Below, one piece after another: positions 5,895-58,882 of a stretch of 64,000 nt of DNA. The notes below the pieces were generated by a model. The model ran no database searches. It had not been told where the DNA came from and saw only the letters and a list, made by a program, of their open reading frames with translations. Source of the DNA: an uncultured Chloroflexia bacterium (GTDB lineage Bacteria; Chloroflexota; Chloroflexia; QHBQ01; JADMIH01); NCBI GenBank assembly GCA_963797095.1, contig CAWCNY010000005.1:221231-285230 (forward strand). Reading direction: 5' to 3'. Positions within the stretch are counted from its first letter, which is position 1. Each line of letters opens with the position of its first letter. The position numbers were made by a program, and so were the translations under genes.

Positions 5895-7784
5895 GTGAGT
5901 TTCCACATGACGCTCAGTTCCTTTCGTGCGCGCCGCTCTGGTGGCCCGCGTCTCCTCATGGCTTTAATGCTGACGTTCTCTGCCCTGGGAATATTGCTCG
6001 CGCCGATCTCGCGTGCGGGTGTAGCGCAGGCGCAGACTACCCGCGCACGAACCCCCGGAGACGGCGACCTTTTCGGGATCGTGATGCGCGATCCCTTCTA
6101 CGAGTTCAACACCGACCCGGTCAACTATCCGATGCAAGCCAACAAGACGGCCCTGGAAGAGCAAGCGCAGGAGCTTGCGAACGCGGGTGTGCGCTGGGTG
6201 CGCCTGGAGTTCTTCGCCGACTATGACGGCAGCGTACCCGCAGGGGACATCAACTGGGCCAAGTACGACTACTTCATCAACGAGTTGGCCCCCAAGTACG
6301 ACCTCAAGGTGCTGGCCCTCCTGAACGTGGGGATTGTATCGTACGAGGGCCAGACAGTGCGCACAATCGCGTTCAACGACCCACCGGACGGTGCGGGCGC
6401 AGATCCCAACGACGGCTCCAACCACTTCATCCGCGTGTTCCGCGACCGAGCCGCGCAGGTAGCAGCACATTACGGGCATGCGATCAGCGCCTACGAGATC
6501 GTCAACGAACCGAACATTAGCTGGGATCTGTGGCAGGACAGCCACTATATTGAGGCCGAGATCAAATCTGAAAGATATGCAGCGCTGCTGTCGAGCGCCT
6601 ACGAAGCGATCAAGACCGTGGACCCCGACGCGCAGGTGATCACAGGCGGGATCATGATCGGCTCGCCACCCGAAGAACAAGATCGCAATGAGTTTGACTA
6701 CCTGTACGAGCTATATACATCCAAGTGGGTGGCCCGATATAAGTTGGATGGTGGGCCAAACAAACCCGGCTGGAACGTCGTGCCCTGGGACGGGGTGGCC
6801 CTGCACCCCTACTGGATGGACGCGCCAACGCTTTTTGCGCTGATCAACGACTTCTCACGCAAGCTGCGCGACCGCCAGGACTTCAAGAGCAGGCTGTGGA
6901 TCACCGAGGTGGGCGCGCCGGCCGATCCGCCTACTGGGCAGACCGACAAGCCGTCACAGCAGGAGATCGACCAGGCGTACTACCTGCGCGCCATCTACGG
7001 CGGCATCCTGGACAGCGACGAATTGAGCGCCAACGTCGCGCACGTCTTCTGGTTCAAGTACGAGGACTTTGTGCCCGGAGACTACACCCACAACTACGGG
7101 CTGGTGCGCCTTGAGGAGAACGCCACCCATGACGACTACGCACCTTCGGGCAAGGTGTGGGTGCACAAACTGGCATTCAAGGCATACCAGGAGCTTGCGC
7201 TCGGCTACAGCATCACCGACCCCGTGGCGGAAGCGGATGCCCGCGCCCAGAACTTCTTCTACTTCGATGCTACCCACCAGGCCATCGCGCCTCAGTTCGC
7301 CGAATACTGGATCGAGAAGGGGGGGTTAGAGCGCTTCGGCTATCCCATATCGCGCCCCGTGACGATTAAAGGCGTACTCAGCCAGTTCTTCCAACGCGCG
7401 GTGTTCGAGTACCACCCGGAATACGCGCGCACCCCTAACGAGGTGCTACTGCGTCTGGTTGGCAGCGAGCTTGCCGTTGGGCGCAATTTCGCTCCCGCCG
7501 ACAAATCGGTGCTCTCCAGCGACGGAATGTTCTTCCCCGAAACCGGGCACACACTGAAAGACCCATTCCTCACATTCTGGAATGAGCGCGGCGGCCTTGC
7601 TGTGTACGGCTACCCGATCTCCGAGCAGCTTTCGGAACAGGCACCTGACGGCCATATCTACACCGTCCAATATTTCGAGCGTAACCGCCTGGAGTACCAC
7701 CCCGAAGCAGCGGGCACACCCTACGAAGTACAGCTTGGCCTGCTTGGCGCGGCCCTCCTGAAAGAGGACCTCTGGTGGCGCTAG
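5895..7784 (+). CDS. Secreted clan GH-A glycoside hydrolase (GH5/GH39-like) with two C-terminal tandem repeats of about 75 aa (LGFP-like)
   Basis: Signal peptide. Acid/base motif YEIVNEPN and nucleophile motif LWITEVGAP. Two C-terminal repeats containing GG(L)xxFGYPIS...QYFERxRxEYHP...QLGLLG. Confidence 0.7.
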   Translation: MSFHMTLSSFRARRSGGPRLLMALMLTFSALGILLAPISRAGVAQAQTTRARTPGDGDLFGIVMRDPFYEFNTDPVNYPMQANKTALEEQAQELANAGVRWVRLEFFADYDGSVPAGDINWAKYDYFINELAPKYDLKVLALLNVGIVSYEGQTVRTIAFNDPPDGAGADPNDGSNHFIRVFRDRAAQVAAHYGHAISAYEIVNEPNISWDLWQDSHYIEAEIKSERYAALLSSAYEAIKTVDPDAQVITGGIMIGSPPEEQDRNEFDYLYELYTSKWVARYKLDGGPNKPGWNVVPWDGVALHPYWMDAPTLFALINDFSRKLRDRQDFKSRLWITEVGAPADPPTGQTDKPSQQEIDQAYYLRAIYGGILDSDELSANVAHVFWFKYEDFVPGDYTHNYGLVRLEENATHDDYAPSGKVWVHKLAFKAYQELALGYSITDPVAEADARAQNFFYFDATHQAIAPQFAEYWIEKGGLERFGYPISRPVTIKGVLSQFFQRAVFEYHPEYARTPNEVLLRLVGSELAVGRNFAPADKSVLSSDGMFFPETGHTLKDPFLTFWNERGGLAVYGYPISEQLSEQAPDGHIYTVQYFERNRLEYHPEAAGTPYEVQLGLLGAALLKEDLWWR

Positions 7785-7795
7785 TAGTGCGTCAA
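7781..7795. repeat. IS630 left terminal inverted repeat plus TA
   Basis: Exact reverse complement of 9051-9065. Confidence 0.8.
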
Positions 7796-8457
7796 GCGGC
7801 ATCTGATAGGTTCTCGGATTGAAGTGAGGCTTGCACTTGGATGGTTGGATACAGCTTCTTCAGTTTGATACGCGCATCAGCTGTCGTGAAGCGCCATTCC
7901 ACTGTCGCCTTGGCGTTGTTGCGCTCCTCTACCCAGCCGCTCGTTTCCATCCCCAACCGCTCTTGGTCTGCTATTCGCCGGTCCAAACACTGCTTGCTAA
8001 GCACCGATAGCTCGATCTCCGCCATGTTCAACCAACTACCATGCTTGGGTGTGTAGTGGACCTCCAACCTGTTGATGATCCGCCTCGCCTCTTCGGGCTC
8101 AAACACTTCATAAAGTGCGGATAGGTCATGCGTATTCAGATTGTCCATCACCAACCGGATCAAAACGGCATCTGGGAAGTAGGGGTCCACCAACTCACGC
8201 ATACAGTAGGCAAAGTCCACTTTGGTGCGATGCTCCGTTACCACTACCTCTCGCCAGTTCTCAAGACGAGCAAATAACATGAACAGGTTGCTCACACCGT
8301 TACGCACATACTCGTAGTCCACCCTCGCTGGCAGGCCGGGTGCTACCGGTAGGGGAGTGTGGCTCTCCCCGATTAGCTGCTTGCTCGTTTCATCGAGGCA
8401 CACCAGCGGGTATTCAGGATCATAGGGAGCAGTGTACAAATCGAGCACATCTTCCAT
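7792..8457 (-). CDS. IS630 transposase C-terminal DDE_3 part (orfB frame). The frame is open upstream to the A7 run, where a -1 shift would fuse it to orfA.
   Basis: DDE-domain motifs VCLDETSKQ, LVMDNLNTH and SWLNMAEIE. The -1 frame after AAAAAAA reads KKNEIKPWLKEEYCIPPQADADFVYHMEDVLDL, continuing directly into this ORF. Confidence 0.75.
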   Translation of the reverse strand: MEDVLDLYTAPYDPEYPLVCLDETSKQLIGESHTPLPVAPGLPARVDYEYVRNGVSNLFMLFARLENWREVVVTEHRTKVDFAYCMRELVDPYFPDAVLIRLVMDNLNTHDLSALYEVFEPEEARRIINRLEVHYTPKHGSWLNMAEIELSVLSKQCLDRRIADQERLGMETSGWVEERNNAKATVEWRFTTADARIKLKKLYPTIQVQASLQSENLSDAA

Positions 8458-11962: not shown

Positions 11963-12405
11963 TCAGCAATCTCCTTCAAGATGGTGGGCAGGTCCCGCGC
12001 CAGGTTGGAGTTAGCGAGCACTCGCCCCGCGCCCGCTGCCTTCGCCTTGCGTCGCGCCTCCGTGTCCATGTGCGGCCCGAAAGCCACCACGGGTGTGCCG
12101 CGTTGGGCGGCCTCGCGGGTGGTGGTCTCCCAGTCACCGCGCGATGACAGGTCCACTACCAGCACATCGCCGCCCGGCAGGGGCACACCTGGGCGCAGCA
12201 TCACAGGCTTCAGCCCGGCGTGCCGCGCCATGTTCTGAAGTTGCACCCCGAACATCAGGTCGGTGCACAGCAGGACGGCGATACGCTCTCGCGTCGGCAC
12301 GGTTCCATCCAATGGAGTGCCTGCCTCATCCCGGCTGTTGGTGCTTCTCTGGTTAGCGATCTCTGCCACTCGCGTTAGGGTATCAGAATGCCGGTCCAGC
12401 GTCAA
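11950..12405 (-). CDS. Divergent stand-alone CheY-like receiver domain protein
   Basis: Receiver-like pattern: IAVLLCTDL, DVLVVDLSS, VVAFGPH, AKAAGAGRVL. Overlaps the downstream cupin gene by 13 nt. Confidence 0.4.
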   Translation of the reverse strand: MTLDRHSDTLTRVAEIANQRSTNSRDEAGTPLDGTVPTRERIAVLLCTDLMFGVQLQNMARHAGLKPVMLRPGVPLPGGDVLVVDLSSRGDWETTTREAAQRGTPVVAFGPHMDTEARRKAKAAGAGRVLANSNLARDLPTILKEIAEWGK

Positions 12406-12549
12406 GTTAGGCAGGGCTAATGCAAAGTCAGATAAGACGGTGGGAAAGGCCGCCCATCTCGGCCCTTGTCATTCTTCACTTCGTTCAGAATGACGCATCC
12501 AAACTTGGTGTGTCCGATACCGACTTTGCTTCAGCCCTGCAAGTTAGGC
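12403..12549. repeat. MITE-like small repeat element: 11-bp direct repeats flanking 16-18 bp imperfect inverted repeats around an internal hairpin
   Basis: Direct repeat caagttaggca at 12403-12413 and 12539-12549. Inverted repeats cagggctaatgcaaagtc and gactttgcttcagccctg. Internal hairpin gtcattct-N11-agaatgac at 12468-12494. A related copy lies at 58535-58607. Confidence 0.5.
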
Positions 12550-12643
12550 ACCAAATCTTGCCAGGATCGCCTGAGTGCTATAGTATTATGGTGGGTGGCT
12601 TTGCAATTTGCCCACCGCCCGAAGGTGAGGATATCCCGCTCGC

Positions 12644-14428
12644 ATGAGAAAAGCTGATATTCTTGACGACCAGCAAGCACAGGTGCGCGCCGCCGAACGC
12701 GAGGCTCTGAGCGCGCTCTCCTCGGCCATCGCGCCTCTCGAACCCGATGATGCAGATGTGGCTTCGCTTCGGCAGGCCGAGGCGGACCTTGAGGAGCTTT
12801 TCCTGTTGGTCGTTGTGGGGGAGTTCAATTCGGGCAAGTCCTCATTCATCAATGCGCTGCTGGGCCAGGAGGTGCTCCCGGAAGGGGTCACACCCACCAC
12901 CGCTACGATCAGTCTGCTACGATACGGTACGTCGGTGACTGAACACCAGGTGGCCGATTTCGTCACCGAGCGTACCTATCCAGCCGAGTTCCTGCGCGAG
13001 ATCAGCATCGTGGACACGCCCGGCACTAACGCGATCATACGCCGCCACGAGGAATTGACGCGCACCTTCGTGCCTCGCTCGGACATGGTGCTCTTCATTA
13101 CATCGGCGGACCGCCCTTTCACCGAATCGGAGCGGTCATTCATGGAGACGATACGGGAGTGGGGCAAGAAGATCGTGCTGGTGCTGAACAAGATCGATCT
13201 GCTGGGCAGCGAGGACGATCTCAATCGCGTACTCCACTTCATCGAGGAGAACAGCGTGGCCCTGCTGGGCCAGAAACCCGACGTGTTCCCCGTGTCGGCG
13301 CGGCTCGCCAAGCGCGCCCGCTCTACCGATACGTTCGCCGAGCGCGAAGCCCTGTTGCGAGCCAGCCGCATGGACGCGCTGGAGCATTACATATTCTCGA
13401 CCTTGGACGAGGCAGGGCGCATACGCCTGAAGCTCTCGACACCGCTGGGTGTTGCCAATCGAACGCTCGAAAAGTACCAGGAGATCGCACATGAGCGGCT
13501 GGACGTGCTGGCCGAAGATTTCAAGACCGTGCAGAACATCGAGGATCAGCTTCGCATCTACTCGGAAGATATGCATCGCGAGTTCGAGGGCAGGCTCGCC
13601 AACATCGAAAACATCATCTTTGAATTGAAGGAGAGGGGCGACATCTTCTTCAACGAGACGCTGCGTATCGGTCGCATACGCGACCTGCTGAACGCCAAGA
13701 AGGTCGAAAGCGATTTCCAGAAGCAGGTGCTGGCCGACACCGCCCAGCGCGTGGACGATGCCACCAACGGCCTCATAGATTGGATGGTGGACCAGGACCT
13801 GCGGATGTGGCAATCGGTGACCGACTACGTCAACCGCCGTCAGGCTGTGGGGGTGGGGGCGTCGCAGGGCTACCAGGAGCGAGTGATGGGAGGAACTGGC
13901 ATGACGGGCGTGGCGGGCTTCGCCTACAACCGCGATGCTCTGTTGCGGTCGGTTGTGAAGGAGGCCCGCCACGTGGTGGAGAACTACGACCGCGAGGAAG
14001 AGGCCACCATCATAGCGCAGGATATGCGCAACGCCGTCGGCGTGATGCTTGGGGCAGGTGGGGTAGCCGCGCTGGGCGTGCTGGTGGCGGCTACTGTTAC
14101 GGTAGCTTTCCTGGATGTTACCGGCATAACGGCGGCCATCCTCGCGGGGGCTATCGGCCTCTTTATCCTCCCGTACCGGAAGCGGAAGGCGCAGGAAGAA
14201 TTCCGGGCACGCACGCAGGAATTGCGCGATAAGCTAAGTAGCGCCATGACCTCACAGTTCAACTCGGAGCTTACCCGCTCTATCGAGCGGATACGTGACG
14301 CCATCGCGCCCTATACTCGCTTCGTGCGCCTTGAGCAGGAACGAGTTTCGAAAGCGGACAGTAGCCTCTCCGAAGTGGCGCGCAAGCTCACTGCCTTGCG
14401 CGGCCAGATTGAGACCATCGGGAGGTAA
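12644..14428 (+). CDS. Bacterial dynamin-like protein (large GTPase with membrane paddle)
   Basis: G1 GEFNSGKSSFINAL, G2 T, G3 DTPG, G4 NKID. C-terminal hydrophobic hairpin GVMLGAGGVAALGVLVAATVTVAF...ILAGAIGLFILPY. Confidence 0.8.
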   Translation: MRKADILDDQQAQVRAAEREALSALSSAIAPLEPDDADVASLRQAEADLEELFLLVVVGEFNSGKSSFINALLGQEVLPEGVTPTTATISLLRYGTSVTEHQVADFVTERTYPAEFLREISIVDTPGTNAIIRRHEELTRTFVPRSDMVLFITSADRPFTESERSFMETIREWGKKIVLVLNKIDLLGSEDDLNRVLHFIEENSVALLGQKPDVFPVSARLAKRARSTDTFAEREALLRASRMDALEHYIFSTLDEAGRIRLKLSTPLGVANRTLEKYQEIAHERLDVLAEDFKTVQNIEDQLRIYSEDMHREFEGRLANIENIIFELKERGDIFFNETLRIGRIRDLLNAKKVESDFQKQVLADTAQRVDDATNGLIDWMVDQDLRMWQSVTDYVNRRQAVGVGASQGYQERVMGGTGMTGVAGFAYNRDALLRSVVKEARHVVENYDREEEATIIAQDMRNAVGVMLGAGGVAALGVLVAATVTVAFLDVTGITAAILAGAIGLFILPYRKRKAQEEFRARTQELRDKLSSAMTSQFNSELTRSIERIRDAIAPYTRFVRLEQERVSKADSSLSEVARKLTALRGQIETIGR

Positions 14429-14440
14429 TCGTCACACCTG

Positions 14441-14821
14441 ATGCGACCGGACCTCACATACTTCCTCGGCAGGCGTGTCACCGTAGTGGTGGATCGCCCT
14501 GTGGGAAGCTATCACCCGCGTTTTCCAGAGGGCGAGCCCTACCCTTTGAATTACGGTTTCGTACCGGGCACGGTCTCTGGTGATGGTGAGCCGGTAGATG
14601 TATATTTGCTTGGACCTCGGGAGCCGGTCGCGCAGGCGGTAGGCACCGTTATTGCTGTAGTGCTAAGAAGTGGCGACGTTGAAGATAAACTGGTTGTCGC
14701 CACGGACGAATACGCGTGCAACACCCCCGAAGCGGTGTGGGCGCAGATAAGCTTTCAAGAGGATTACTTCGACAGCAAGCTTTTCATGCCCGGTACTACG
14801 CACAACTTACCAACACCCTAA
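14441..14821 (+). CDS. Truncated family I inorganic pyrophosphatase-like protein
   Basis: Aligns to the PPase core (YPLNYGFVPGT, DGEPVDVYLLG, DVEDKLVVA) but lacks about 40 N-terminal residues. Length 126 aa. Confidence 0.5.
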   Translation: MRPDLTYFLGRRVTVVVDRPVGSYHPRFPEGEPYPLNYGFVPGTVSGDGEPVDVYLLGPREPVAQAVGTVIAVVLRSGDVEDKLVVATDEYACNTPEAVWAQISFQEDYFDSKLFMPGTTHNLPTP

Positions 14822-14835
14822 CACCAGGAGTAACA

Positions 14836-17328
14836 ATGCAGTTCTCACTAAGATTTGGGCGCATAGGCTCGCTCACTATATATTTCAATTACACGTGGCT
14901 GTTCGCCATCGTACTCGGCCTGTGGTGGCTGGCCCTCCTTTGGCTACCCGACCATCTGCCGGGCTGGCAAGGCCGTTGGTACTGGCTGGATGCCGTGCTT
15001 GTGCTCATTCTATACCTCGTTACATTGCTGATTTACGAGGGCATACACAGCCTTGTGGGGCGCACAGGCCCGCGCAACGCTCAGCTTTACCCCATAGGCG
15101 CGGCCCAACCATTCCGCCTCGACCGGATAGAACCTGGCAGGGGGGTGCTGGCCGCGCTTCTCGCGCCGCTGTTCAATCTGGTGCTGGGCGGTACCCTCGT
15201 GATCCTTACAAGCGGCATCGCCCCCGATGGGGTGTTCACCAATGCTATCAAGGGTCTTTTCGAGCCGTTGGGCTGGCTCAACCTGGCGCTTGGCGTCATC
15301 AACTTCATTCCCGGCATCCCATTCGACGGGGGCTGGGCCCTGAGCATGGGCATCTACTGGTTCAACGGCGACCGCGAATCCGGTATGTCGCTTGCGCGGT
15401 CGGCTGGCGGGTTCGCGGCGCTCGCGTTGGTGTTGTTGGGGGCCTGGCGCGGGCTTACGACTAATTCCTGGGTGGACGCGCTGGCACTTGTGTTCATCGG
15501 GTGGTCCGCAAACGATGCGGGCAATCTCAGCAGGGGGCGGAGCCTCCTTCGGGGCACTTTCAGCGAGCTACATACCAGCGACCTGATGATACCTGTAAGA
15601 GAGAATGACAGCGTACAGGCAAACGAGAGCGTGACAGCTTTGGTCAGAGCCTTCCCGCGCTTCCCGCCGGGCGAGCCTATAGCAGTGCTCGACGACGACG
15701 GCAAGCTAACCGGAGTGGTCACCCTCAGCGCGACGGAGGCTTTGCTACAGGGCAACTGGGCATCCACCCCAGTGCGCTCTATTGCCACCCCATTGGAAGA
15801 GGCGCACGCTCTGCCGCCGGGTGCCTCGCTTAACGACGCCATCGCCCTGTTCGAAGAGCGCCCCGTTGACCAGGATGAAGAGCTTTCCATCCCGATTGTC
15901 GAGGGTAACAAGCTTGTCGGCAGCATCAGCCCATCACGCCTCAACACGTTCGTCGGCGTGGCCGAGCAGTTCGGCGTGGAAGAGACGCTCAACCGGGAGG
16001 CCACAGCGTCTGGCGGGTTGCTTAGCATGCTCGGCAGGGTGCTGCCCGCCATCATTCTGATTACGTTCCTCGCGATCCTGGGTAACATCGCTCTACGGAC
16101 GAATCCGGCAGAGATTCGCGGCTCGACCGACGTGAACACCGAGGCCCCCATCACTTTCAAGAACTTCACCCCACCCGATGATGCCATCGTCGGCCTCGGA
16201 CCCGTTACTATCTCCGTAGAAGCAGCGGGGCCAAGCGAAATCACTACAGCCACGTTGACTCTGGACGGGCAGCCCCTGGACGCGGTAATAAGCGGCGAGT
16301 CGCCTTTGACAAAAACCCTCACCGCCTCGATCCCCGGCGCGACCCTCGGCCTTCACGACATCACAGTCAAGGCCTCGCTGGAGAGCGGCAGATCGAAAAG
16401 CGAGGATTGGCAGTTCCGTGTCAGCGCCACGGGCCAACCCGAAGGCGAGGGGACCCCACAGCCAACGCCCCAACCCACCACGCCTCCTATAGCGCCACCC
16501 GAATTCTCAGGCTTTAAGCCGGTATTGGGAGCGCAGGTGCTGGCCGGAGCCACTGCGGTGCGCGTCGGAGTGGTTGTCACATCCACGCAGCCTATCAGCC
16601 AGGCAACCGTGCTACTCGACGGGCAGGAACTGGCAGCGCAGGTCGCGCCTGTGGCGGGCAACTCCAACTTGTACTCGATCTCAGCAACCGCACCTAAGGT
16701 CGAGGCGGGGACACACAGGCTGAGGGTTGAGGTAAGCGTCGGCGGTGTTTCGGGGGCGACCGAATGGACATTCAATGCCATCACGCCCGACGACAGCAAC
16801 GTCTATTTCGAGCAAACTGGCCATTTCATCTCCGAGCCGTTCCTGAGCTACTGGCAAAACAACGGAGGGCTTGCCATCTTCGGCTACCCGATCTCCGACC
16901 GGATCGTTGAGACGGCGCAGGACACAGGCGAGCAATATATCGCCCAGTACTTCGAGCGCGCCCGCTTTGAAATACACCCGTCCATTGGAGGCACGCTGCT
17001 GTTGGGGAGGTTGGGCGCGCTAATCCACCAACCCGACCCGGCTGTGGATCCGATTGATGGTCAGCAGTACGTCCCGGAAACAGGCCACAACCTGGGAGGG
17101 GACTTCCTGGCGTACTGGAACGCCAACGGCGGCCTTGCGGTATTCGGCTATCCGATCAGCGAAGTGGTTACCGAGACTAACGCGGCTGACGGCAAAGATT
17201 ATCAGGTCCAGTACTTCGAGCGGAATCGCTTCGAGTTGCACCCAGACGCCGACCCCGCCAGCCGGGTGCAGCTAGGGCTACTTGGCGTGGAAATCTACAA
17301 ACAGATTTACGGAACGGGAACGCCATGA
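14836..17328 (+). CDS. Polytopic M50 (site-2 protease)-like protein with degenerate HExxH, CBS pair, extracellular Ig-like domains and two C-terminal LGFP-like repeats
   Basis: RBS aggag upstream of the ATG at 14836; the ORF-track start at 14716 overlaps the upstream gene. YEGIH replaces HExxH. Second M50 motif NFIPGIPFDGGW is present. CBS pair (PIAVLDDDGKLTGVV; IPIVEGNKLVGSI). Internal TM, then Ig-like regions, then 2 LGFP-like repeats. Confidence 0.65.
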   Translation: MQFSLRFGRIGSLTIYFNYTWLFAIVLGLWWLALLWLPDHLPGWQGRWYWLDAVLVLILYLVTLLIYEGIHSLVGRTGPRNAQLYPIGAAQPFRLDRIEPGRGVLAALLAPLFNLVLGGTLVILTSGIAPDGVFTNAIKGLFEPLGWLNLALGVINFIPGIPFDGGWALSMGIYWFNGDRESGMSLARSAGGFAALALVLLGAWRGLTTNSWVDALALVFIGWSANDAGNLSRGRSLLRGTFSELHTSDLMIPVRENDSVQANESVTALVRAFPRFPPGEPIAVLDDDGKLTGVVTLSATEALLQGNWASTPVRSIATPLEEAHALPPGASLNDAIALFEERPVDQDEELSIPIVEGNKLVGSISPSRLNTFVGVAEQFGVEETLNREATASGGLLSMLGRVLPAIILITFLAILGNIALRTNPAEIRGSTDVNTEAPITFKNFTPPDDAIVGLGPVTISVEAAGPSEITTATLTLDGQPLDAVISGESPLTKTLTASIPGATLGLHDITVKASLESGRSKSEDWQFRVSATGQPEGEGTPQPTPQPTTPPIAPPEFSGFKPVLGAQVLAGATAVRVGVVVTSTQPISQATVLLDGQELAAQVAPVAGNSNLYSISATAPKVEAGTHRLRVEVSVGGVSGATEWTFNAITPDDSNVYFEQTGHFISEPFLSYWQNNGGLAIFGYPISDRIVETAQDTGEQYIAQYFERARFEIHPSIGGTLLLGRLGALIHQPDPAVDPIDGQQYVPETGHNLGGDFLAYWNANGGLAVFGYPISEVVTETNAADGKDYQVQYFERNRFELHPDADPASRVQLGLLGVEIYKQIYGTGTP

Positions 17329-17825
17329 CCGGGAACCAATCGCCTGATGAAATCACCGTTCGCAAGGCAGAGGCCGCGGACGCCGACCTGCTGATCAACC
17401 TGATCGTGGGCCTGGCCGAGTTCGAGAAGCTTGAACCGCCTGACGAGGCCGCCCGCCACAGGCTTGTTAATGACGCCTTTGGGCCAAAGCCGCGCTTCGA
17501 GGTCTTCCTGGCCGAGATCGATGGCGAGATCGCGGGGTACGCTTTCACCTTCGATACCTATTCGACCTTCCTTGCGCGCCCGACCCTTTACCTAGAGGAC
17601 CTGTTCGTGCTCCCCGATTACAGGGGTAAGAAGGTCGGTTATGCGCTGATGCTATACCTGGCGTCCGAGGCGGTGCGGCGAGACTACGGGCGCATGGAAT
17701 GGGTAGTGCTTGACTGGAACACGCACGCGCAAGGATTCTACAAGCGATTGGGGGCCAGGCACCTGGACGATTGGTATTTCTACAGGCTGGACCGCAAGGC
17801 GCTCGACCGTCTCATTGAGCCGTAA
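17325..17825 (+). CDS. GNAT family N-acetyltransferase
   Basis: GNAT motifs (IAGYAFTFDTYSTF, LFVLPDYRGKKVGYALM). ATGA overlap with the upstream gene. Confidence 0.75.
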   Translation: MTGNQSPDEITVRKAEAADADLLINLIVGLAEFEKLEPPDEAARHRLVNDAFGPKPRFEVFLAEIDGEIAGYAFTFDTYSTFLARPTLYLEDLFVLPDYRGKKVGYALMLYLASEAVRRDYGRMEWVVLDWNTHAQGFYKRLGARHLDDWYFYRLDRKALDRLIEP

Positions 17826-17840: not shown

Positions 17841-19930
17841 CTATACTTCAATACCATCCTCATCGTTGCCCATCAATTGCGCGAGCACTTCCTCAGGGTC
17901 GGTGCTGGGGGCCTGGCAGATGTAGTTGCGGCAAATATAGGCGGTGGCTTTACCCTTCACCGCAGGCCGCCCTTCGAGCAACGGCACCTCGCGTGCAACA
18001 TCTTCAGCGCCCGGCTCATAGGCTGCTACTACCTTGTTGGGAGCAAACGGCGTTCTGACTGCCCGTAGCATAGCGTTCATATCATCGTGCCCGAAGTGCC
18101 CCACCAGCGCCACCTCGGCAGCTCCGCCCAGGTAGAAATCGAGCACCGATAGCATACGCCCGAATGCGGTGGGAGCGCGGCCCAACGCAGGAAGCAGAGG
18201 CTTGATGATCCCAAGCGCGTACTCCTCATATTCGGAGTTAGCGGTCAGCAGATAGAGCCGCAAGAGCGCCTCAGCCGCCTCCGAATTGGCCGATGGCGTG
18301 GCGTTATCGTACAGGTCTTTGGGGCGCGCCACCAGGGCTTCGTGATAGTCGGCGGTTGAAAAGAACCCTCCGCTCTTGCCGTCCCAGAAGTGCCCCGTGA
18401 GCAAATTGATCATATGCCTGGCTTCGCGCAGCCATACCGGGTTGAAATCCGATTCATAAAGGGAGATCAGCGCGCTCGCATACGCGGCGTAATCTTCCGC
18501 GAAGGCATCTATGTGGGCGCGCCCGTCCTTATAAGTCCTGTAGAAGCGTCTTTCCCCACCCTTAGCCTCATAGCTCATCGTCTTTAGCACGAAGTCGGCA
18601 TTGGCTGTCGCGATTCGCAGGTATTCCTCATTGTCCAGAAGGGCGGCGGCCTCCGCGAAGGCCCGCATCATCAGCCCATTCCAGCCCATGAGCACCTTAT
18701 TGTCGGTGCCTGGGTGTATTCTCCCGGCTCGTGCCTCATAGAGCTTCTTGCGCCAGCTTTGCACTCTTACATTCAAATCATCAGGGTCGATCCCATTTCG
18801 CTGTGCGAACTCCTCGATAGGCACATCCAGGTGCAGGATGTTGTGCCCCTCGAAGTTGCCGCGCCCGGCCGCATCGTATAACCGGCTGAATAGCTTGCCC
18901 TCTTCCCCGCCGAGTACGGCCACGATCTCGTCGGGGGTCCATACATAGAACTTGCCCTCCACGCCTTCGCTGTCGGCGTCCTGCGCCGAGTAGAAGCCTC
19001 CTTCGGGCGATGCCATCTCGCGGGCAACATAGCTCAACACCTCCTCGGCGATCTGCCTGTAGAAAGGCTTGCCGGTGGCCTGGTATGCCCACAAGTAAAC
19101 CCTGGCAAGGAGGGCGTTATCGTAGAGCATCTTCTCAAAATGGGGCACCAACCACACATCATCCACGGAATAGCGATGGAAGCCTCCCCCCACCTGGTCG
19201 TAGATGCCGCCAAGCGCCATCTTCCGGAGGGTTAGCTCGGCCAGTGCAAGGAGTTCGGTATCGCCGGTGCGCTTCCACTGCTTGAGCACAAACTCGATAT
19301 TCATCGGCTGGGGGAACTTGGGCGCACCCGTTGTTCCGCCGTTCACCCGGTCGAAGTCGCGCAAGAGGTTGCGCACGGCTTCATCAAGCACCGCCACGCT
19401 CGGTTCGTTGCGGGAGGGCGGGAGCTCGCGCCCACCCGACAGGAACTGGCTCAACTCTCTGGCGCTCTGGCCCACGTCGGCTCGGCGCTCGCGGTAAGCG
19501 CGCGAAACCGAGGTGAGGACGCGCGGGAACGAAGTCATGCCGCGCCCTTCCTGTGCCGGGAAGTAGGTGCCTCCGTAAAACGGCTCGCCATCAGGGGTAA
19601 GGAAGACGGTCATAGGCCAGCCTCCCTGCCCGGTCATGGCCTGGATCGCGTCCATGTAGACCGCGTCGAGGTCGGGGCGCTCCTCCCGGTCCACTTTGAT
19701 ATTGACGAACAGGTCGTTCATCAGCGCCGCAATAGCGGGGTTCTCAAACAATTCGTGGGCCATTACATGACACCAGTGGCAGGCCGAATAGCCGATGCTA
19801 AGAAGGATAGGCTTGTCCTCCTCCTTTGCCTTGCCCAGGGCTTCGCGTCCCCACGGATACCAATCGACCGGGTTGTCCTTGTGCTGGAGCAGATACGGAC
19901 TGGTTTCCCCGGCAAGTTTGTTAGGCATTG
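17841..19930 (-). CDS. Thioredoxin-domain protein, YyaL/DUF255 family (N-acylglucosamine 2-epimerase-like six-hairpin C-terminal domain)
   Basis: Starts [16 protein letters not shown]. Thioredoxin-like CHWCHVM. The long six-hairpin glycosidase-like C-terminus is typical of YyaL. The 1010-aa ORF in the track is an upstream run-on. Confidence 0.8.
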
Positions 19931-19939
19931 TTCTTCTCC

Positions 19940-20578
19940 CTATGCAAGCAGACTGAGCAGCGCCACCACCCCAAACCCCAGGATGAGTATACCTGAGATA
20001 CGGTTTACCCACCACAGACCCCGAAGCGTAAACTTCCCCCTCAGCAGGCTCACGCCTCCGCTCAACAGAAGCCACCACAAAGCCGATCCTGTGAACACAC
20101 CAAGCACCAGCAAGGTCGGGGCCAGGTAGTCTCCTCGGGCGCTGGCCAGCCCAAGCCCCGCGAACACCACCACGAATGATAGGATGGTGGTGGGGTTGGT
20201 AAGGGTAAGCGCCAGCGTGGATAGGTAGGCTCCCACCAGCCCCGCCCGGCGGCTGTCGTTCTCGGCTGGAGAACCGGTGGGCCTGGAGATAAACGTGCGC
20301 ACGCCCAGGTACAACAGGAAGAGGCCGCCCACAAGTCTCAGCCAGGCGGCCTGGCCTACCAGGAACGTCGAAATGAAGGTAAGGCCAAAGCCCGCTATCA
20401 ATCCATAGGTGGCGTCGGCGGTGGCCGCGCCCAGGCCCGACACCAGCCCATAAGCGCGCCCCTCGGCCAGCGTCCGCCGGATGCAAAGCACCCCGATTGG
20501 CCCGACCGGGGCCGCGATAGAGAAGCCTATAAGTAATCCGCGCAAGTAAATCCAGGGGTCCATGATTTGGTGTTCCAA
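19940..20578 (-). CDS. LysE/RhtB family amino-acid exporter
   Basis: Six TM segments. LysE signature N-terminus [32 protein letters not shown]. Confidence 0.8.
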
Positions 20579-20585
20579 GTTCCTG

Positions 20586-20620
20586 GTAGTCGGTAGTCGG
20601 TAGTCGGTAGTCGGTAGTCG
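20586..20620. repeat. Tandem heptanucleotide repeat (GGTAGTC) x5
   Basis: Perfect 5 copies in the LysE-AzlD intergenic region. The same unit in opposite orientation occurs x10 at 54602-54671. Confidence 0.9.
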
Positions 20621-20638
20621 GAGGATCCTGGGAAATGG

Positions 20639-20992
20639 TTAGGGGAGGAATCTCCTCAGCAGCCAGACCGACACGACGCCGACCAGCATAGCAAGGAGCA
20701 GGTTCTTCAACCTGGCGGCCACCGCAGCCGTTATCAGCGCGGCCAGCGCCTCGGCCGGTCCTGCCGTTAGCGTGCCCGATTCGCCTCCCGCTTGCGCCCC
20801 CAGCAAGCCCGCCGGCACGATAGTGGGAGCAACAATAGCGATTAGCACGGCGGCGGGTACGTATCGAAGCCATGAGCTTAGCTTTCCCTGGAGCGACGCC
20901 CGGCTCAACAGGAGGAAGCCGCCGATGCGAGTGGCATAAGTTACCGCAGCCATCCCCAGGATCGTCAACAGCACCAGTGGATCAACCGTCAT
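20639..20992 (-). CDS. azlD: Branched-chain amino acid transport protein AzlD
   Basis: Small 4-TM protein. Overlaps the AzlC gene by 11 nt, giving the typical azlCD pair. Confidence 0.7.
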
Positions 20993-37081: not shown

Positions 37082-39556
37082 ATGGCATTGCACCGTAAGC
37101 ATATTTTATGTCGTTTTGCGCTGGCTATCTCGCTCATAGTCATATCCTGCGCTTTCCTCAGCCACGCTCAAACAAACCCAACCTCAGTATATGCCGCGCC
37201 AGCCCCCCCGCAGGCATCCTCCCCATTCGGTGTGGCCGGCGTGATGCGCTGGCCCGTTTGGGGCACCTTCAACGAGCCTGCTGACCTTATGTTGCAAACA
37301 GGCGGCGCGTGGGTGCGCGACGACTTCGTATGGTCCTTGATCGAACCTAAGCCCGACCAATGGGATTGGACCGCCACCGACAAGATCGTGGCCGAGTTGG
37401 GCGGGCGCAATCTCAATGTCCTGGGCCTGCTGGCCTATTCGGTAAGCTGGGCCACTTCCACCACCGACGACAATTCCACAGCGCTCTCATTCTACCCACC
37501 CGATCCCGACAAATACTACACCTTCGTTCGCACCCTCGTACGCAGATACAAGAACGTGATCCACACCTGGGAAGTGTGGAACGAGCCCGACAACAACATA
37601 TTCTGGAAGCCCTCGCCCAGTCCGCGCGACTACGCGGCCCTCCTCAAGGTCGCATACCGCGCCGTCAAGGACGCCGACCCAACTGCCAGAGTCGCAACGG
37701 GTGGCGTATCGGGAAACGCTGTGCCCTTCCTCGAAGAAGTATTCGCAAGCGGCGCATCAAACTCGTTCGACATCCTGGCGATCCACCCCTATGCCGTGCC
37801 CCTCGATCCCGCCCAGGGCCAGATACAAAGCCGCCCTGAAGTCCACAAGATACTCGATGTCGAGCTTGCCAAGTACCGCGCCCTCCTCAGCAGGCACTCA
37901 CTGGACAAGCCTGTTTGGGTCACCGAGATCGGCTGGCCCGCGAACGGTTGGAACCTGAACCCCAACCTCCAGGCCGACTACCTGGCCCAGGCTTACGCGC
38001 TCATGCTCTCAAGCGGCCTCACCGAGCGTATCTTTGCATACAGCTTCAAGGACCAATCGGCAAACGGCGGCGACAGCTGGGGCATGGTCGCCTGGGGTGA
38101 TGGCGCAACCGACCTGAGCCAGGTTCGACCATCTTTCGACGCCTACTCTACCAGCGCGAAACTCCTGACAGGCACCTCTCCCGGGGGCCGCATCCAATTA
38201 TCGCCCGTCTCAGTCGCCGTCGATTTCGAATCGGGCGGCCAGTGGTCGCGCTCCATGCAGGGCGATGGCACGCTCACCACTTCCACCGAACGCCAGCACA
38301 GCGGATCGGCCTCCGGCAAGCTGCAATACAACCTTACCGCCCAGAACCAGGCCGTGGACTTCGCGCCACCCCAGCCCGTGAACCTGCCGGGTCAGCCTAC
38401 CCGCATCGGCGTCTGGGTGCTTGGCGATGGGTCGGGCAACTACCTCAGCGCGTGGCTGCGCGACCGCGACGGCGAGCTTTTCAAGGTGCGCCTGGGGGCC
38501 GTAATGGGCGCGAACGACGGCTGGCGCTATTACGAATCCTCTATAGACAGCTATTACTTCGATTGGGAGCACGCAGGCGGCAACCCCGCCAACGGCAAGC
38601 CCGACTACCCACTCCAATTCGTCAGCTTCAGGCTTGAGAACACCCCCGACGAACCTGCCGGTGGGGGCACAATCTACCTGGATGATTTGCAGACCTGGGA
38701 GGGGCCTGATGTGACCGGCGTTCGTTTCAACAGGGGCGACGGCACCGTCGTTGATGTCGTATGGTCGGCCAACCCCACCCAGGCCCTTCTGCCCACCTCA
38801 TCGGGAACCGCCCAGGTCTTTACTCGCGACGGAGCGGAATCGACCGTGACCGCAGGCAACGGCGCGATTCCACTCGATGTCAACGATAGCCCAATTTATG
38901 TGGTCCATAAACCTCCTATCAGCGCCCTGAAAACGACCGCTCCGGTGCTGCCAAACGGCGGGTACACTCAATTGTGCGATGCCGCCCAACCTGCCGCCGA
39001 CCTCAACGCCCCCGGCAACACTTTCTACTCCCAGACATGGCACAACCTCTCCGAACCGTTCAGGTCCTACTGGCAGAGCCACGGAGGTGTGAACATCCTG
39101 GGCTACCCGATCACCGAGGTGTTTGAGGGCACACTGGACGATGGCAAGCCCTACAAGCTGCAATATTTCGAACGCGCCAGGATCGAATACCACCCTGAAA
39201 ATCGCTCACCCGAAGATGTGCAATTGGGACTGTTAGGCGTGTGGGCTGCCGCTCACTCCGATGCGTCACACGTGGCACAGGCGCAGGCCGCACCGGGGGG
39301 GCAGTTCTTCCCTGAAACGGGCCAGACTCTCAACATCTTCAGCGCCTGGTGGAACGCCAACGGCGGCCTCTCGACTTTCGGCTTCCCTATATCGCCTGAG
39401 ACCAAAGAGCGCAACGCCGCCGACGGCAAAGACTACACAGTGCAGTACTTCGAGCGCAATCGCCTCGAATACCACCCCGAAAACGCGGGCACATCCCAGG
39501 AAGTGATGCTCGGACTCCTCGGTACCGAGTACGTGACCGCGCAGGGCTGCCGCTGA
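37082..39556 (+). CDS. Secreted clan GH-A glycoside hydrolase (GH39/GH5-like) with beta-sandwich region and two C-terminal LGFP-like repeats
   Basis: Signal peptide. HTWEVWNEPDN acid/base motif. PVWVTEIGWP nucleophile motif. Repeats at 39023-39553 (GGVNILGYPITE...LQYFERARIEYHP; GGLSTFGFPISPE...VQYFERNRLEYHP). Confidence 0.7.
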   Translation: MALHRKHILCRFALAISLIVISCAFLSHAQTNPTSVYAAPAPPQASSPFGVAGVMRWPVWGTFNEPADLMLQTGGAWVRDDFVWSLIEPKPDQWDWTATDKIVAELGGRNLNVLGLLAYSVSWATSTTDDNSTALSFYPPDPDKYYTFVRTLVRRYKNVIHTWEVWNEPDNNIFWKPSPSPRDYAALLKVAYRAVKDADPTARVATGGVSGNAVPFLEEVFASGASNSFDILAIHPYAVPLDPAQGQIQSRPEVHKILDVELAKYRALLSRHSLDKPVWVTEIGWPANGWNLNPNLQADYLAQAYALMLSSGLTERIFAYSFKDQSANGGDSWGMVAWGDGATDLSQVRPSFDAYSTSAKLLTGTSPGGRIQLSPVSVAVDFESGGQWSRSMQGDGTLTTSTERQHSGSASGKLQYNLTAQNQAVDFAPPQPVNLPGQPTRIGVWVLGDGSGNYLSAWLRDRDGELFKVRLGAVMGANDGWRYYESSIDSYYFDWEHAGGNPANGKPDYPLQFVSFRLENTPDEPAGGGTIYLDDLQTWEGPDVTGVRFNRGDGTVVDVVWSANPTQALLPTSSGTAQVFTRDGAESTVTAGNGAIPLDVNDSPIYVVHKPPISALKTTAPVLPNGGYTQLCDAAQPAADLNAPGNTFYSQTWHNLSEPFRSYWQSHGGVNILGYPITEVFEGTLDDGKPYKLQYFERARIEYHPENRSPEDVQLGLLGVWAAAHSDASHVAQAQAAPGGQFFPETGQTLNIFSAWWNANGGLSTFGFPISPETKERNAADGKDYTVQYFERNRLEYHPENAGTSQEVMLGLLGTEYVTAQGCR

Positions 39557-48854: not shown

Positions 48855-48960
48855 CAGGCTCTTATCAAGAGAGGTGGAGGGATACGGCCCTATGAAGCCC
48901 GGCAACCAGACCAACGGTGGTCCAGGTGCCAACTCCGACAGAGCGATCTGTAAGATGAGG
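48855..48960 (+). promoter_or_regulatory. SAM-I (S-box) riboswitch aptamer
   Basis: ctcTTATCAAGAGaGGtGGAGGGAtacGGCCCtATGAAgCCCGGCAACC...GGTGCCAActCC...aAGATGAG is a near-consensus S-box core, including the P1 strands CUCUUAUC/GAUGAG. Confidence 0.8.
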
Positions 48961-48993
48961 GAGTGGTTGGTCTGGCGCTACGCGCACATGCCT

Positions 48994-54557: not shown

Positions 54558-54601
54558 CCCGTCATAATATCACTCGTCACTCGCCGCTCACCATTCACCC
54601 T

Positions 54602-54671
54602 CCGACTACCGACTACCGACTACCGACTACCGACTACCGACTACCGACTACCGACTACCGACTACCGACTA
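54602..54671. repeat. Tandem heptamer repeat (CCGACTA) x10, the reverse complement of the GGTAGTC array at 20586
   Basis: Perfect 10 copies filling most of the argF-argH intergenic region. Flanked by cactcgtcactcg (two GTGACGA-type units). Confidence 0.9.
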
Positions 54672-55766
54672 CCATCTCCCCACCAAGCTAGCCAGCAACG
54701 CGTTCTGCGCGTACATCCGGTTCGCCGCCTCCTGAACCACGATGCTGGCCGGGCTATCGAGCACACCATCCGTAACTTCCACGTTGCGGCGAGTGGGCAG
54801 GCAGTGCATGAACCGCCCGCTGTTCGTAAGCGCCATGATCTCCTCGTTCACGATCCAGTGCTTCAACCCTTCGCGGATTGCCTTTTCAGCCTCCCAATCC
54901 CCGTAATGACTGATCGCGCCCCAACTCTTGGCGCAAATCACTTCAGCCCCCTGCGCAGCCTGCGTCATATCATGGCTGATCGTCAGCGAGCCTCCCGCCT
55001 GCGCGGCTCTCGCATGGGCCGTCGCCATCACATCCGCGTCCAGGTCCCAACCTTCGGGAAACGCCAGCGTAACATCACAACCCATATCGCAAGCGGCCAG
55101 CAATTGCGAATGAGGCGTGGCGGTGGGCAATGCCTTAGGGTGATTTGCCCACGTCAGCACATACTTCTTCCCCTGCGTCTGCCCAAGTTGCTCCCTCAAT
55201 GTAAGAGCATCCCCCAATCCCTGGCATGGGTGGAACGCGTTCGATTCCAGGTTGATTACGGGCACGGAAGCGTACTTCGCGAAGCTTCTCACAATCGTAT
55301 CCTTGCGCGCCTCCTCCCACGTTGCCGACGAATTGCTCGTCTTGCCACTCGTAGTAATCAACTCGCTCGATCTTACTCCTAGCGCGTCGCAATATTCGGC
55401 CAGCACCGGAGCGGCCTCCTTGATGTGCTCCTGCGTCGCCCCGTTCATCACCACCCCATCCTCAAACTCGAACACATACGTCCCCGACAGATCGAGCGCC
55501 GTCCCGCCCATTCGAGCTATCCCGGCACCAAGCGATGTCTTGGTCCGAAGTGAAGGGTTGAAGAACACCATCCCAACCACAATTCCCCGCAACAATTGTC
55601 GCCCATACCCCTCCTGCTTCAAGCTCAAGGCCCGCTCCACAAGCTCAACAAACGCCTCCTGCGGCATCTCGGCACTATTGAGATAATCTTTCCCGGCGAA
55701 GGAATATGCCCCTTGCGCGCCCTGGTTCGCATTGATCTGTTCTATAGTATCTGTAATCGCAACCAT
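54669..55766 (-). CDS. ATCase/OTCase-superfamily carbamoyltransferase with non-canonical SLRTK motif (ornithine or acyl-ornithine carbamoyltransferase)
   Basis: HCLP motif (FMHCLPTRRN). Carbamoyl-phosphate site FFNPSLRTKTS replaces the canonical STRTR. 365 aa. Sits in the arg operon. Confidence 0.7.
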   Translation of the reverse strand: MVAITDTIEQINANQGAQGAYSFAGKDYLNSAEMPQEAFVELVERALSLKQEGYGRQLLRGIVVGMVFFNPSLRTKTSLGAGIARMGGTALDLSGTYVFEFEDGVVMNGATQEHIKEAAPVLAEYCDALGVRSSELITTSGKTSNSSATWEEARKDTIVRSFAKYASVPVINLESNAFHPCQGLGDALTLREQLGQTQGKKYVLTWANHPKALPTATPHSQLLAACDMGCDVTLAFPEGWDLDADVMATAHARAAQAGGSLTISHDMTQAAQGAEVICAKSWGAISHYGDWEAEKAIREGLKHWIVNEEIMALTNSGRFMHCLPTRRNVEVTDGVLDSPASIVVQEAANRMYAQNALLASLVGRW

Positions 55767-58481: not shown

Positions 58482-58534
58482 TCCCATAGTTTAGCATACG
58501 GCTAATAACCCGTCAAGTGGCAAACTGAACAAAA

Positions 58535-58607
58535 CAGGGCGATTGCAAAGTCGGTAGTTGGCGTACCAGAGTGGATTTGTCATTCTGAACGAAGTAAAGA
58601 ATGACAA
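58535..58607. repeat. Second, partial copy of the MITE-like element: TIR-like cagggcgattgcaaagtc plus hairpin ttgtcattct-N11-agaatgacaa
   Basis: TIR matches the 12412-12429 TIR at 16/18. The hairpin stem is identical to the 12468-12494 hairpin, with the loop reverse-complemented. Confidence 0.5.
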
Positions 58608-58882
58608 GACGTAAACTCGTAGCATTCCCTGGCATTCCCTATGCTCTCTACATGACCTTGCCTGCCAAGCAAAACGGTGAGTAGGCTATCTCCTCAACAG
58701 CCTCCTAACCATGGACCCACCCCTCCCTTATGATAAAATAGAGCAGACCATATCAATCGCCACTATGCATCGTCTTTCGTCCGTCGTCCAAAAGGGATAC
58801 CACCATCAACCCTGATACCCTGACCCACAGCACAAAGCTGCAAAACACTATAGCCGGGCGCTTCAAGGGCCTCATCCTCGAT

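Follow-up and report, generated by a model that had tools for sequence, protein, structure and literature searches.

A Dynamin-Like GTPase and a Long-Form Site-2 Protease Homologue Form a Clade-Restricted Gene Pair in Chloroflexia

Four Co-Directional Genes in a Soil Chloroflexia Genome

Four co-directional plus-strand genes of a soil Chloroflexia bacterium are clustered at positions 12644-17825 of the 64-kb stretch of DNA that we analysed as a whole (hereafter, the window). They specify a dynamin-like GTPase (dynamin-like protein, DLP; 12644-14428; 594 amino acids, aa), a mini family-I-pyrophosphatase (PPase)-like protein (14441-14821; 126 aa), a long-form M50B site-2 protease (S2P) homologue (14836-17328; 830 aa from an ATG with an AGGAG Shine-Dalgarno sequence) and a GNAT N-acetyltransferase (17325-17825; 166 aa). 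The mechanical open reading frame (ORF) of the M50 gene opens further upstream at a GTG, and the ATG at 14836 was taken as the biologically sensible start. The cluster joins known kinds of protein and is built around an ancestral, clade-restricted pairing of the DLP with the M50 protein, both of them membrane proteins.

The intergenic gaps measure 12 nucleotides (nt) between the DLP and PPase-like genes and 14 nt between the PPase-like and M50 genes, while the M50 and GNAT genes share an ATGA stop/start overlap. The tight packing reported in the original prediction, which had been made from the sequence of the window alone, matches both the ORF list and the raw sequence. The identities it had given to the four genes were likewise borne out by Pfam, profile searches and motifs; Dynamin_N and Pyrophosphatase scored above their Pfam cut-offs, and CBS was matched as well, in the three genes concerned. 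In the following, loci of relatives are designated by L numbers and homologous proteins by P numbers, with positions within a locus given after a colon.

A Membrane-Anchored DLP of a Widespread Solitary Family

The first gene encodes a genuine membrane-anchored bacterial DLP of a widespread solitary family. Its Dynamin_N match in Pfam amounts to 94.1 bits (cut-off 27; E 1.2e-26), and the G1 (GEFNSGKS, aa 59-66), G3 (DTPG, aa 124-127) and G4 (NKID, aa 182-185) motifs are invariant among orthologues, which are 70-72% identical. Hydropathy identifies a single hydrophobic hairpin of ~50 aa (aa 463-512; nt 14030-14179). The family profile matches the solved structures of Cj-DLP1 (5OWV; 1.9e-16) and BDLP (2J68; 8.8e-16), and also that of IniA (6J72).

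In a scan of one genome per species, relatives of this DLP were found in at least 550 species from several phyla; the 80 best of them show 44-86% identity along their whole length. The hosts include Chloroflexota, Gemmatimonadota (Longimicrobia), Acidobacteriota, Armatimonadota, Rubrobacteraceae and others. Bacterial DLPs have mostly been reported as side-by-side pairs or fusions (PMC6104087). Here, a single DLP occurs in each of 84 family loci and in the whole window. Clustering of the three genes on either side of the DLP in these 84 loci yielded no generally conserved neighbour, the largest neighbour clusters being the clade-specific M50 protein (six loci) and the GNAT (five loci).

A Site-2 Protease Homologue with a Long Extracellular Extension

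In Pfam, the M50 protein reaches 29.5 bits with CBS and 29.8 bits with Big_7, but only 23.6 bits with Peptidase_M50, which is below the cut-off of 27.2 and covers the C-terminal motif only. A profile of 23 M50 sequences, on the other hand, matches the S2P of M. jannaschii (3B4R; E 8e-15) across the entire transmembrane (TM) core, with HELVH aligned to HELGH and NLIPGIPFDGG to NLIPAFPMDGG. The M50 identity proposed for this protein, short of the Pfam threshold, stands by the profile match, and we judge that the region does find M50 models. A database search returned 25 further proteins, the majority being full length (810-854 aa) at 43-68% identity; wherever a source was named, it was a Chloroflexia or Chloroflexota metagenome-assembled genome (MAG).

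The core, supported by fold and profile, consists of six helices (aa 1-~240) and is followed by a tandem (Bateman) CBS pair (aa ~245-385). An extra helix, TM7 (aa 395-421; nt 16018-16098), is long and constitutes the strongest hydrophobic segment of the protein. After TM7 come two Ig/Fn3-like beta domains (aa ~440-529 and 556-649) and, at the C-terminus, two LGFP-like helix-plus-sheet repeats of ~88 aa each (aa ~655-830). The AlphaFold2 (AF2) model has a mean predicted local distance difference test (pLDDT) score of 82.4. Pfam, profiles, hydropathy and the AF2 model thus agree with the CBS pair, the extra TM and the Ig-like regions of the original prediction. The two repeats that it had called LGFP-like are present too, but their match to LGFP is sub-threshold (17 bits, E 0.0079, cut-off 22), and an AF2 model of the domain by itself has a pLDDT of 49.

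The N-terminal 429 aa retrieved 3,004 representatives in an exhaustive HMMER search. Since most of the best 150 of these are ordinary M50-CBS proteins of ~370-400 aa that align with it end to end, we regard the window protein as a typical M50B-CBS protease with a predicted extracellular extension of ~400 aa. The long form was found in a few dozen protein clusters only, in Chloroflexia and, for versions of the sister clades described below, also in a Dormibacteraeota MAG.

Two signal-peptide-bearing glycosidase-like proteins in the window, encoded at 5895-7784 (+) and 37082-39556 (+), end in the same double ~88-aa repeat, with the signature FLxYWxxNGGLxxFGYPIS...QYFERxRFExHP. In this organism, the repeat tail is thus an extracytoplasmic module of general use, and it appears to be a lineage-typical one for extracellular anchoring or glycan binding. 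Its occurrence on these proteins supports a polymer-binding role outside the cytoplasm.

The Two Genes in Relatives: Adjacency and a Shared Upstream Motif

The DLP gene is followed by the M50 gene in eight independent loci, namely the window, L091, L001/L002, L005/L093, L008, L015, L094 and L095, in which the DLPs are 70-88% identical. A metagenome scan yielded just six loci in all. The pairing suspected from the window thus recurs in related genomes. As a general module, however, the dynamin-M50 combination does not hold up: it occurs in one clade only, and no long-form M50 gene was detected with the M50-core profile beside the DLP in ~70 distant DLP loci (44-54% identity). The tight operon is specific to the window genome; in relatives, the two genes lie 134-242 nt apart, each with a promoter-like motif of its own.

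This motif, of the -24/-12 (sigma-54-like) type, is the only conserved block in the DLP and M50 intergenic alignments. The M50 version, TGGCAC-N5-[GAC]TGCT with GG-N10-GC spacing, is found between the DLP and M50 genes of six loci. It precedes the ATG by 96-157 nt in L001, L005, L008, L009, L015, L094 and L095 (L001:6905, L005:6880, L008:6865, L009:4089, L015:8318, L094:1986 and L095:1763), and is thus kept in L009 although no DLP gene is adjacent there. The DLP version, TGGCA[AG]-N5-TTGCT, is located 82-143 nt before the DLP start in L005, L008, L012, L013, L014 and L015 (L005:4877, L008:4977, L012:818, L013:7858, L014:7864 and L015:6418) and also occurs in L094 (L094:66), upstream of a DLP gene whose start is off the contig. 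In L011, the DLP motif is weaker (GGGCAC...TTGCG; GGCACAAATCTTGC, one base shorter than the window copy), and distant DLP orthologues mostly lack it. At a score of at least 10 out of 11, 262 kb of clade DNA yield 20 hits, of which 12 fall at the two upstream positions, with the intragenic hit of the window in addition; the background is 0.017 per kb per strand.

In the window itself, the DLP copy GGCACCAAATCTTGC (12547-12561, +) has its GG and GC 11 nt apart, as against 10 nt in relatives, and overlaps a sigma-70-like pair, TTGCCA (12558) and TAGTAT (12586) separated by 17 nt. The other copy, AGGCACCGTTATTGCT (14641-14656, +), falls within the PPase-like ORF, precedes the M50 ATG by 195 nt and is possibly a by-product of G-T-V-I-A codons.

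A CCUCC...GGAGG hairpin is predicted to sequester the M50 Shine-Dalgarno sequence in single-sequence folds of five motif-bearing relatives (L005:6950-7000, L008:6950-7000, L009:4160-4209, L015:8400-8449 and L094:2057-2106), which suggests a leader for translational control. RNAalifold returned no consensus pairs from the gappy M50-leader alignment of the relatives. The window lacks the hairpin and has the PPase-like gene in its place.

The occurrence of the same motif upstream of both genes in relatives suggests co-regulation, and not one coupled operon; a dependence of both genes on sigma-54 may be envisaged. We favour, with a probability of about one half, the reading that the DLP and the long-form S2P homologue are an envelope-linked pair, restricted to one clade and made as separate units of one regulon, and that the arrangement in the window has drifted from this state.

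Several observations weigh against it, and much of the evidence is shared with a tentative but serious alternative: that the two genes are neighbours by recent common ancestry and act independently, the operon of the window being an accident of deletions and insertions. The pairing does not extend beyond one clade, in which it is lost roughly as often as retained: nine informative loci lack the adjacency. Four of these are anchored on the DLP (L012, L013, L014 and L010, the last with an 85% identical DLP followed by GNAT, DsbH-like and LysE genes) and five on the M50 gene (L003/L004, L007, L009, L097 and the P0148 locus). No recurrent neighbour family was found in the ~70 distant DLP loci, as none was across the 84. 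The space between the pair has taken up unrelated genes: beside the PPase-like gene, L091 has a polytopic membrane protein of 175 aa for which no family was detected (L091:1115-1642), in the order DLP, PPase-like, membrane protein, M50; the spacer therefore repeatedly accepts insertions. The synteny of the dTDP-sugar isomerase, GNAT, DsbH-like and LysE genes is retained comparably to that of the pair, and shared ancestry alone could, for this reason, explain the adjacency. Nor did the literature that we searched contain any link between a DLP and an S2P. With regard to the motif, no GAFTGA motif or RpoN box was found in the window (64 kb of the genome) or in the fetched clade DNA, and sigma-54 has been reported only in some Chloroflexi (PMC3162934). 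The motif could also be a repressor or activator operator, because it is quasi-palindromic and overlaps sigma-70-like -35 hexamers.

Independent neighbours would not be expected to share the GG-N10-GC motif, which precedes both genes in conserved form and has few other occurrences in the same DNA, nor to stay together where both outer flanks have changed, as they do in L001 (histidine kinase and Rex-like genes) and L005 (ABC transporter and histidine kinase genes); the outer flanks differ in L008 as well. The adjacency is ancestral to one Chloroflexia clade, often lost and tolerant of insertions, and by itself it is compatible with plain synteny.

A Private Substitution in the Active Site and Two Sister Clades of Candidate Pseudoproteases

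The window M50 protein has YEGIH (aa 67-71; nt 15034-15048; Tyr codon TAC) in place of HExxH and keeps the NxxPxxxDGG motif as NFIPGIPFDGG (aa 156-166; nt 15301-15333), both as originally described. Among the aligned orthologues, N156, P159, P162, F163, D164 and G166 are invariant and G165 nearly so. HExxH and the Asp ligand are present in all 22 aligned orthologues and in six further loci; the family is therefore one of normal metalloproteases, and the Tyr is a private single-base change. In the closest relative, L091, the M50 gene is represented by a fragment whose first 68 aa are 82% identical and which ends in '...LAHE', with His-Glu at the site. The 23-sequence alignment and the further loci exclude a pseudoprotease as a family trait, and the name pseudo-site-2 protease given to the window protein does not apply to its family. 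Here, a "dead enzyme" call made on a single sequence vanished once the orthologues were aligned, which is a methodological point in its own right.

His67Tyr is private to the window genome and is either a real loss-of-function mutation or a base-call error. Replacement of the first His of HExxH normally abolishes S2P activity, and the window protease is probably inactive or crippled by the change. In a relative-rate test against the sister protein P0002, the window M50 core carries 22-30 unique changes versus 12-19 (p 0.017-0.37, depending on the outgroup), whereas the CBS and ectodomain regions evolve symmetrically; faster change of the core under relaxed selection is suggestive only.

That the Tyr is an error of assembly or base calling, and the window protein an ordinary active member of its family, we consider improbable. 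A single nucleotide is concerned (CAC to TAC), the 830-aa ORF being intact apart from it, and the position is one of only three in the core at which the window leaves a near-invariant column. The identical protein is, however, on record in NCBI/ENA from a 745-kb contig, and the same genome has other lineage-specific changes at the locus, namely the longer spacer in the DLP motif and the element resembling a miniature inverted-repeat transposable element (MITE) described below.

Loss of the zinc ligands is conserved in two sister clades, where the idea of a pseudoprotease, not sustained for the family of the window, does find support. Clade B (P0148, P0149, P0150, P0297, P0298, P0300 and P0302; 41-46% identical) has RExxR with the Asp kept. 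Clade C (P0153-P0157, P0160, P0164, P0166 and P0173; 28-32% identical), one protein of which stems from the Dormibacteraeota MAG, has [A/S/I]ExxR and PLAGG, so that all three ligands are lost. Both clades keep the CBS, TM, Ig and repeat architecture of the long form and are candidates for conserved bacterial pseudo-site-2 proteases. As far as we have found in the literature searched, an S2P pseudoprotease has been described only for plant EGY3, which is stated to occur only in plants (PMC9355673); long-form M50 clades devoid of zinc ligands would extend the concept to bacterial S2Ps.

These clades speak for the device originally envisaged, in which a dynamin would be dedicated to a catalytically dead, surface-reaching S2P homologue with the loss of catalysis built in. 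The YEGIH of the window protein and the weak hint of a faster-changing core point the same way. Against it, every other DLP-adjacent orthologue has an intact HExxH and Asp, down to the His-Glu of the L091 fragment, and the only informative locus of clades B and C, that of P0148, has no DLP neighbour (the neighbourhood of P0149 was seen only as a 2.7-kb contig). The Tyr itself, a single C-to-T change, could be recent, deleterious or an error. We consider such a device very unlikely and, on the aligned sequences, largely refuted for the family; the arrangement of a dead protease coupled to a dynamin is specific to the window genome.

The Mini-Pyrophosphatase and GNAT Genes

The PPase-like protein scores 32.9 bits with Pyrophosphatase in Pfam (cut-off 23.5), over residues 31-67 only, and matches solved PPases from E 4.5e-8. 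Its 125 homologues, all but one of which (211 aa) have 98-144 aa, come from Clostridium, Enterococcus, Deinococcus, Symbiobacterium and Chloroflexota and are annotated there as inorganic diphosphatase. The active site of family-I PPases comprises about 14 residues (E20, K29, E31, R43, Y51, Y55, D65, D67, D70, D97, D102, K104, Y141 and K142 in E. coli numbering). When 117 members are aligned with E. coli PPase, the family begins at about R43, so that E20, K29 and E31 are absent; the N-terminal 40 residues are indeed missing, as had been noted. The equivalents of R43, Y51, D65, D70, D102 and K104 are invariant, and that of Y55 is found in 115 of the 117 members, while D67 is mostly Glu, and Y141 and K142 are not conserved. 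The window protein has Gly at D97 (Asn or Asp in the family) and does not have the full active-site set. Nonetheless, the gene is not the truncated remnant it had been taken for, because it belongs to a widespread natural family of 100-135 aa with invariant residues, and this equally excludes a decayed fragment.

The gene stands beside the DLP only in the window, L011 and L091, which represent the nearest lineage. On a 998-kb contig, a homologue is nowhere near a DLP gene, and the family is unlinked to DLP elsewhere. In L006, from a 68%-identical relative, no remnant of it was found 5' of the M50 gene, where the 313 nt are non-coding. The mini-PPase gene is thus a recent insertion between DLP and M50, confined to the closest relatives of the window.

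The GNAT (Acetyltransf_1 in Pfam: 67.9 bits, cut-off 20.7, E 1.2e-18) reached no specific equivalog in an NCBIfam scan, which added nothing more specific for the cluster. Its orthologue lies 3' of the M50 gene in L006, L008 and L015, directly 3' of the DLP gene in L010 and L014, and upstream of the DLP gene in divergent orientation in L013. GNAT, DsbH-like and LysE genes make up a syntenic block that comes after M50 or directly after DLP; the GNAT is a syntenic neighbour. Within this block of the window, the 1010-aa mechanical ORF at 17841-20873 (-) is over-extended, given that Thioredox_DsbH-type orthologues have ~690-700 aa; a LysE-family ORF (19940-20578, -) occupies its supposed N-terminal part.

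A MITE-Like Element and Other Features of the Window

The divergent intergenic region upstream of the DLP gene harbours a palindromic MITE-like element at 12411-12540. It is bounded by 19-nt terminal inverted repeats (12411-12429 and 12522-12540; 89% complementary) and flanked by the direct repeat CAAGTTAGGCA (12403-12413 and 12540-12550), with a 7-8-bp flanking duplication. Its fold is stronger than those of all 200 shuffles (z -4.2). A second, partial copy in an intergenic region at 58534-58640 consists of one terminus (CAGGGCxAxTGCAAAGTC) and the central hairpin (TTGTCATTCT...AGAATGAC); the hairpin also occurs in the relative L006, and the element is absent from the equivalent site in L011. 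The sigma-54-like motif of the DLP gene lies directly to its right. The inverted repeats, the direct repeat, the strong fold and the adjoining motif all agree with the claim of a MITE-like element in the promoter region; with two copies as the evidence, its identity as a MITE is plausible.

Elsewhere in the window, a 221-aa ORF at 7792-8457 (-), directly after a glycosidase-like gene, resembles by eye the C-terminal half of a DDE (IS630/Tc1-like) transposase (HYTPKHGSWLNMAEIE). At 54588-54683, there is a tandem array of ~12-13 copies of the 7-nt unit CCGACTA, and a similar repeat appears to lie near 20.5 kb, to judge from a peptide encoded in the part by which the ORF at 17841-20873 is wrongly extended at its N-terminus. 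The only Rfam element detected in the window is a SAM-I riboswitch (RF00162, 80.7 bits) at 48859-48961 (+).

Discussion

In the favoured reading of a clade-restricted, envelope-linked pair, the DLP and M50 genes of relatives would be separate transcription units, each behind a conserved GG-N10-GC motif, and would most probably be members of a single envelope-related regulon and not parts of a machine coupled in translation. By analogy with BDLP, DynA and IniA, the hairpin-anchored DLP may serve to tether, fuse or repair the cytoplasmic membrane. The M50B protein would combine its six-helix metalloprotease core with a cytoplasmic CBS pair as a putative nucleotide-sensing regulatory domain, while TM7 would place the two Ig domains and the two wall- or glycan-binding-type repeats outside the cell; the protein could thus sense the wall and cleave a substrate. 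The drift of the window would comprise the private His67Tyr, the additional nucleotide in the spacer of the DLP motif, the abutting MITE-like element and the replacement of the M50 leader by the PPase-like gene.

A bolder version, which we hold to be rather unlikely, is that the long-form M50s of Chloroflexia and of relatives, Dormibacteraeota among them, are mainly wall-anchored receptors or scaffolds in which proteolysis is dispensable, the catalytic clade being co-regulated with the DLP as a pair for sensing and repairing envelope damage, and His67Tyr being part of the same drift. If so, the two sister clades would be the first bacterial pseudo-S2Ps to be described, as far as we have found.

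An Eleos (LeoABC)-type anti-phage defence locus, suggested by the full-length matches of the DLP to the PADLOC models LeoBC (7e-25) and LeoA (4.9e-23), is ruled out by gene content, since LeoA plus LeoBC are needed and there is one DLP per locus and in the window, with no other PADLOC match and with a DLP gene that is vertically inherited, widely conserved and single-copy and not a variable, island-borne gene.

That the DLP and the M50 protein are linked, physically or functionally, is a plausible hypothesis. Novel are the extended M50B form that reaches the cell surface, the clade-limited manner in which it is associated, and probably co-regulated, with a solitary DLP, and the candidate bacterial pseudo-S2P clades. 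Bacterial DLPs are still short of well-defined partners and triggers, and a surface-reaching S2P that shares a motif, and often a locus, with a DLP is a testable candidate for an envelope-sensing input to membrane repair. The effect is confined to a small uncultured clade, and the functional roles are predicted ones.

Comparison with Known Systems

The DLP resembles Nostoc BDLP (2J68), Campylobacter Cj-DLP1/2 (5OWV), M. tuberculosis IniA (6J72), B. subtilis DynA and E. coli LeoA in its G1-G4 motifs, its Dynamin_N domain and, as predicted from the sequence, a helical stalk whose hydrophobic hairpin (paddle) inserts into the membrane. The similarity is mostly confined to the GTPase domain, and unlike most bacterial DLPs, the family of the window is solitary; it is ~580-600 aa long and spread across phyla at 44-54% identity.

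The -24/-12 motif is similar to sigma-54 promoters in its TGGCAC-N5-TTGCW-like sequence, its GG-N10-GC invariant in relatives and its position ~80-160 nt before start codons. It departs from them in the N11 spacing of the DLP copy in the window, and it could be an operator. The mini-PPases share with E. coli family-I PPase the core beta-barrel segment with the equivalents of R43, Y51, Y55, D65, D70, D102 and K104; devoid of the first ~40 residues, with Glu at D67 and with Y141 and K142 unconserved, they form a distinct subfamily.

Clades B and C are comparable to Arabidopsis EGY3 as conserved S2P homologues without the zinc-binding motif. EGY3 is a plant thylakoid protein, whereas these clades are bacterial and have an ectodomain, and the clade of the window itself is predicted to be catalytically intact except in this genome.

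LGFP repeat proteins (PF08310) are cell-wall-associated in Corynebacteriales. The repeats of the window share with them a tandem aromatic-Gly-aromatic-Pro core (FGYPIS) at the C-terminus of extracytoplasmic proteins, but they are longer (~88 aa), have a QYFERxRFExHP signature of their own and match LGFP below threshold, with no solved structure assigned. The M50 protein as a whole is closest to the M50B-CBS proteases MJ0392 (3B4R), the A. fulgidus S2P CBS tandem (5G5X) and B. subtilis SpoIVFB (8VJL), with which it has in common the six-helix core, the zinc site (HExxH, in the orthologues, and NxxPxxxxDG) and the cytoplasmic C-terminal CBS pair. It differs from them by the Tyr in place of the first zinc-binding His in the window copy and by ~400 extra residues, which form TM7 and, outside the cell, two Ig domains and two LGFP-like repeats.

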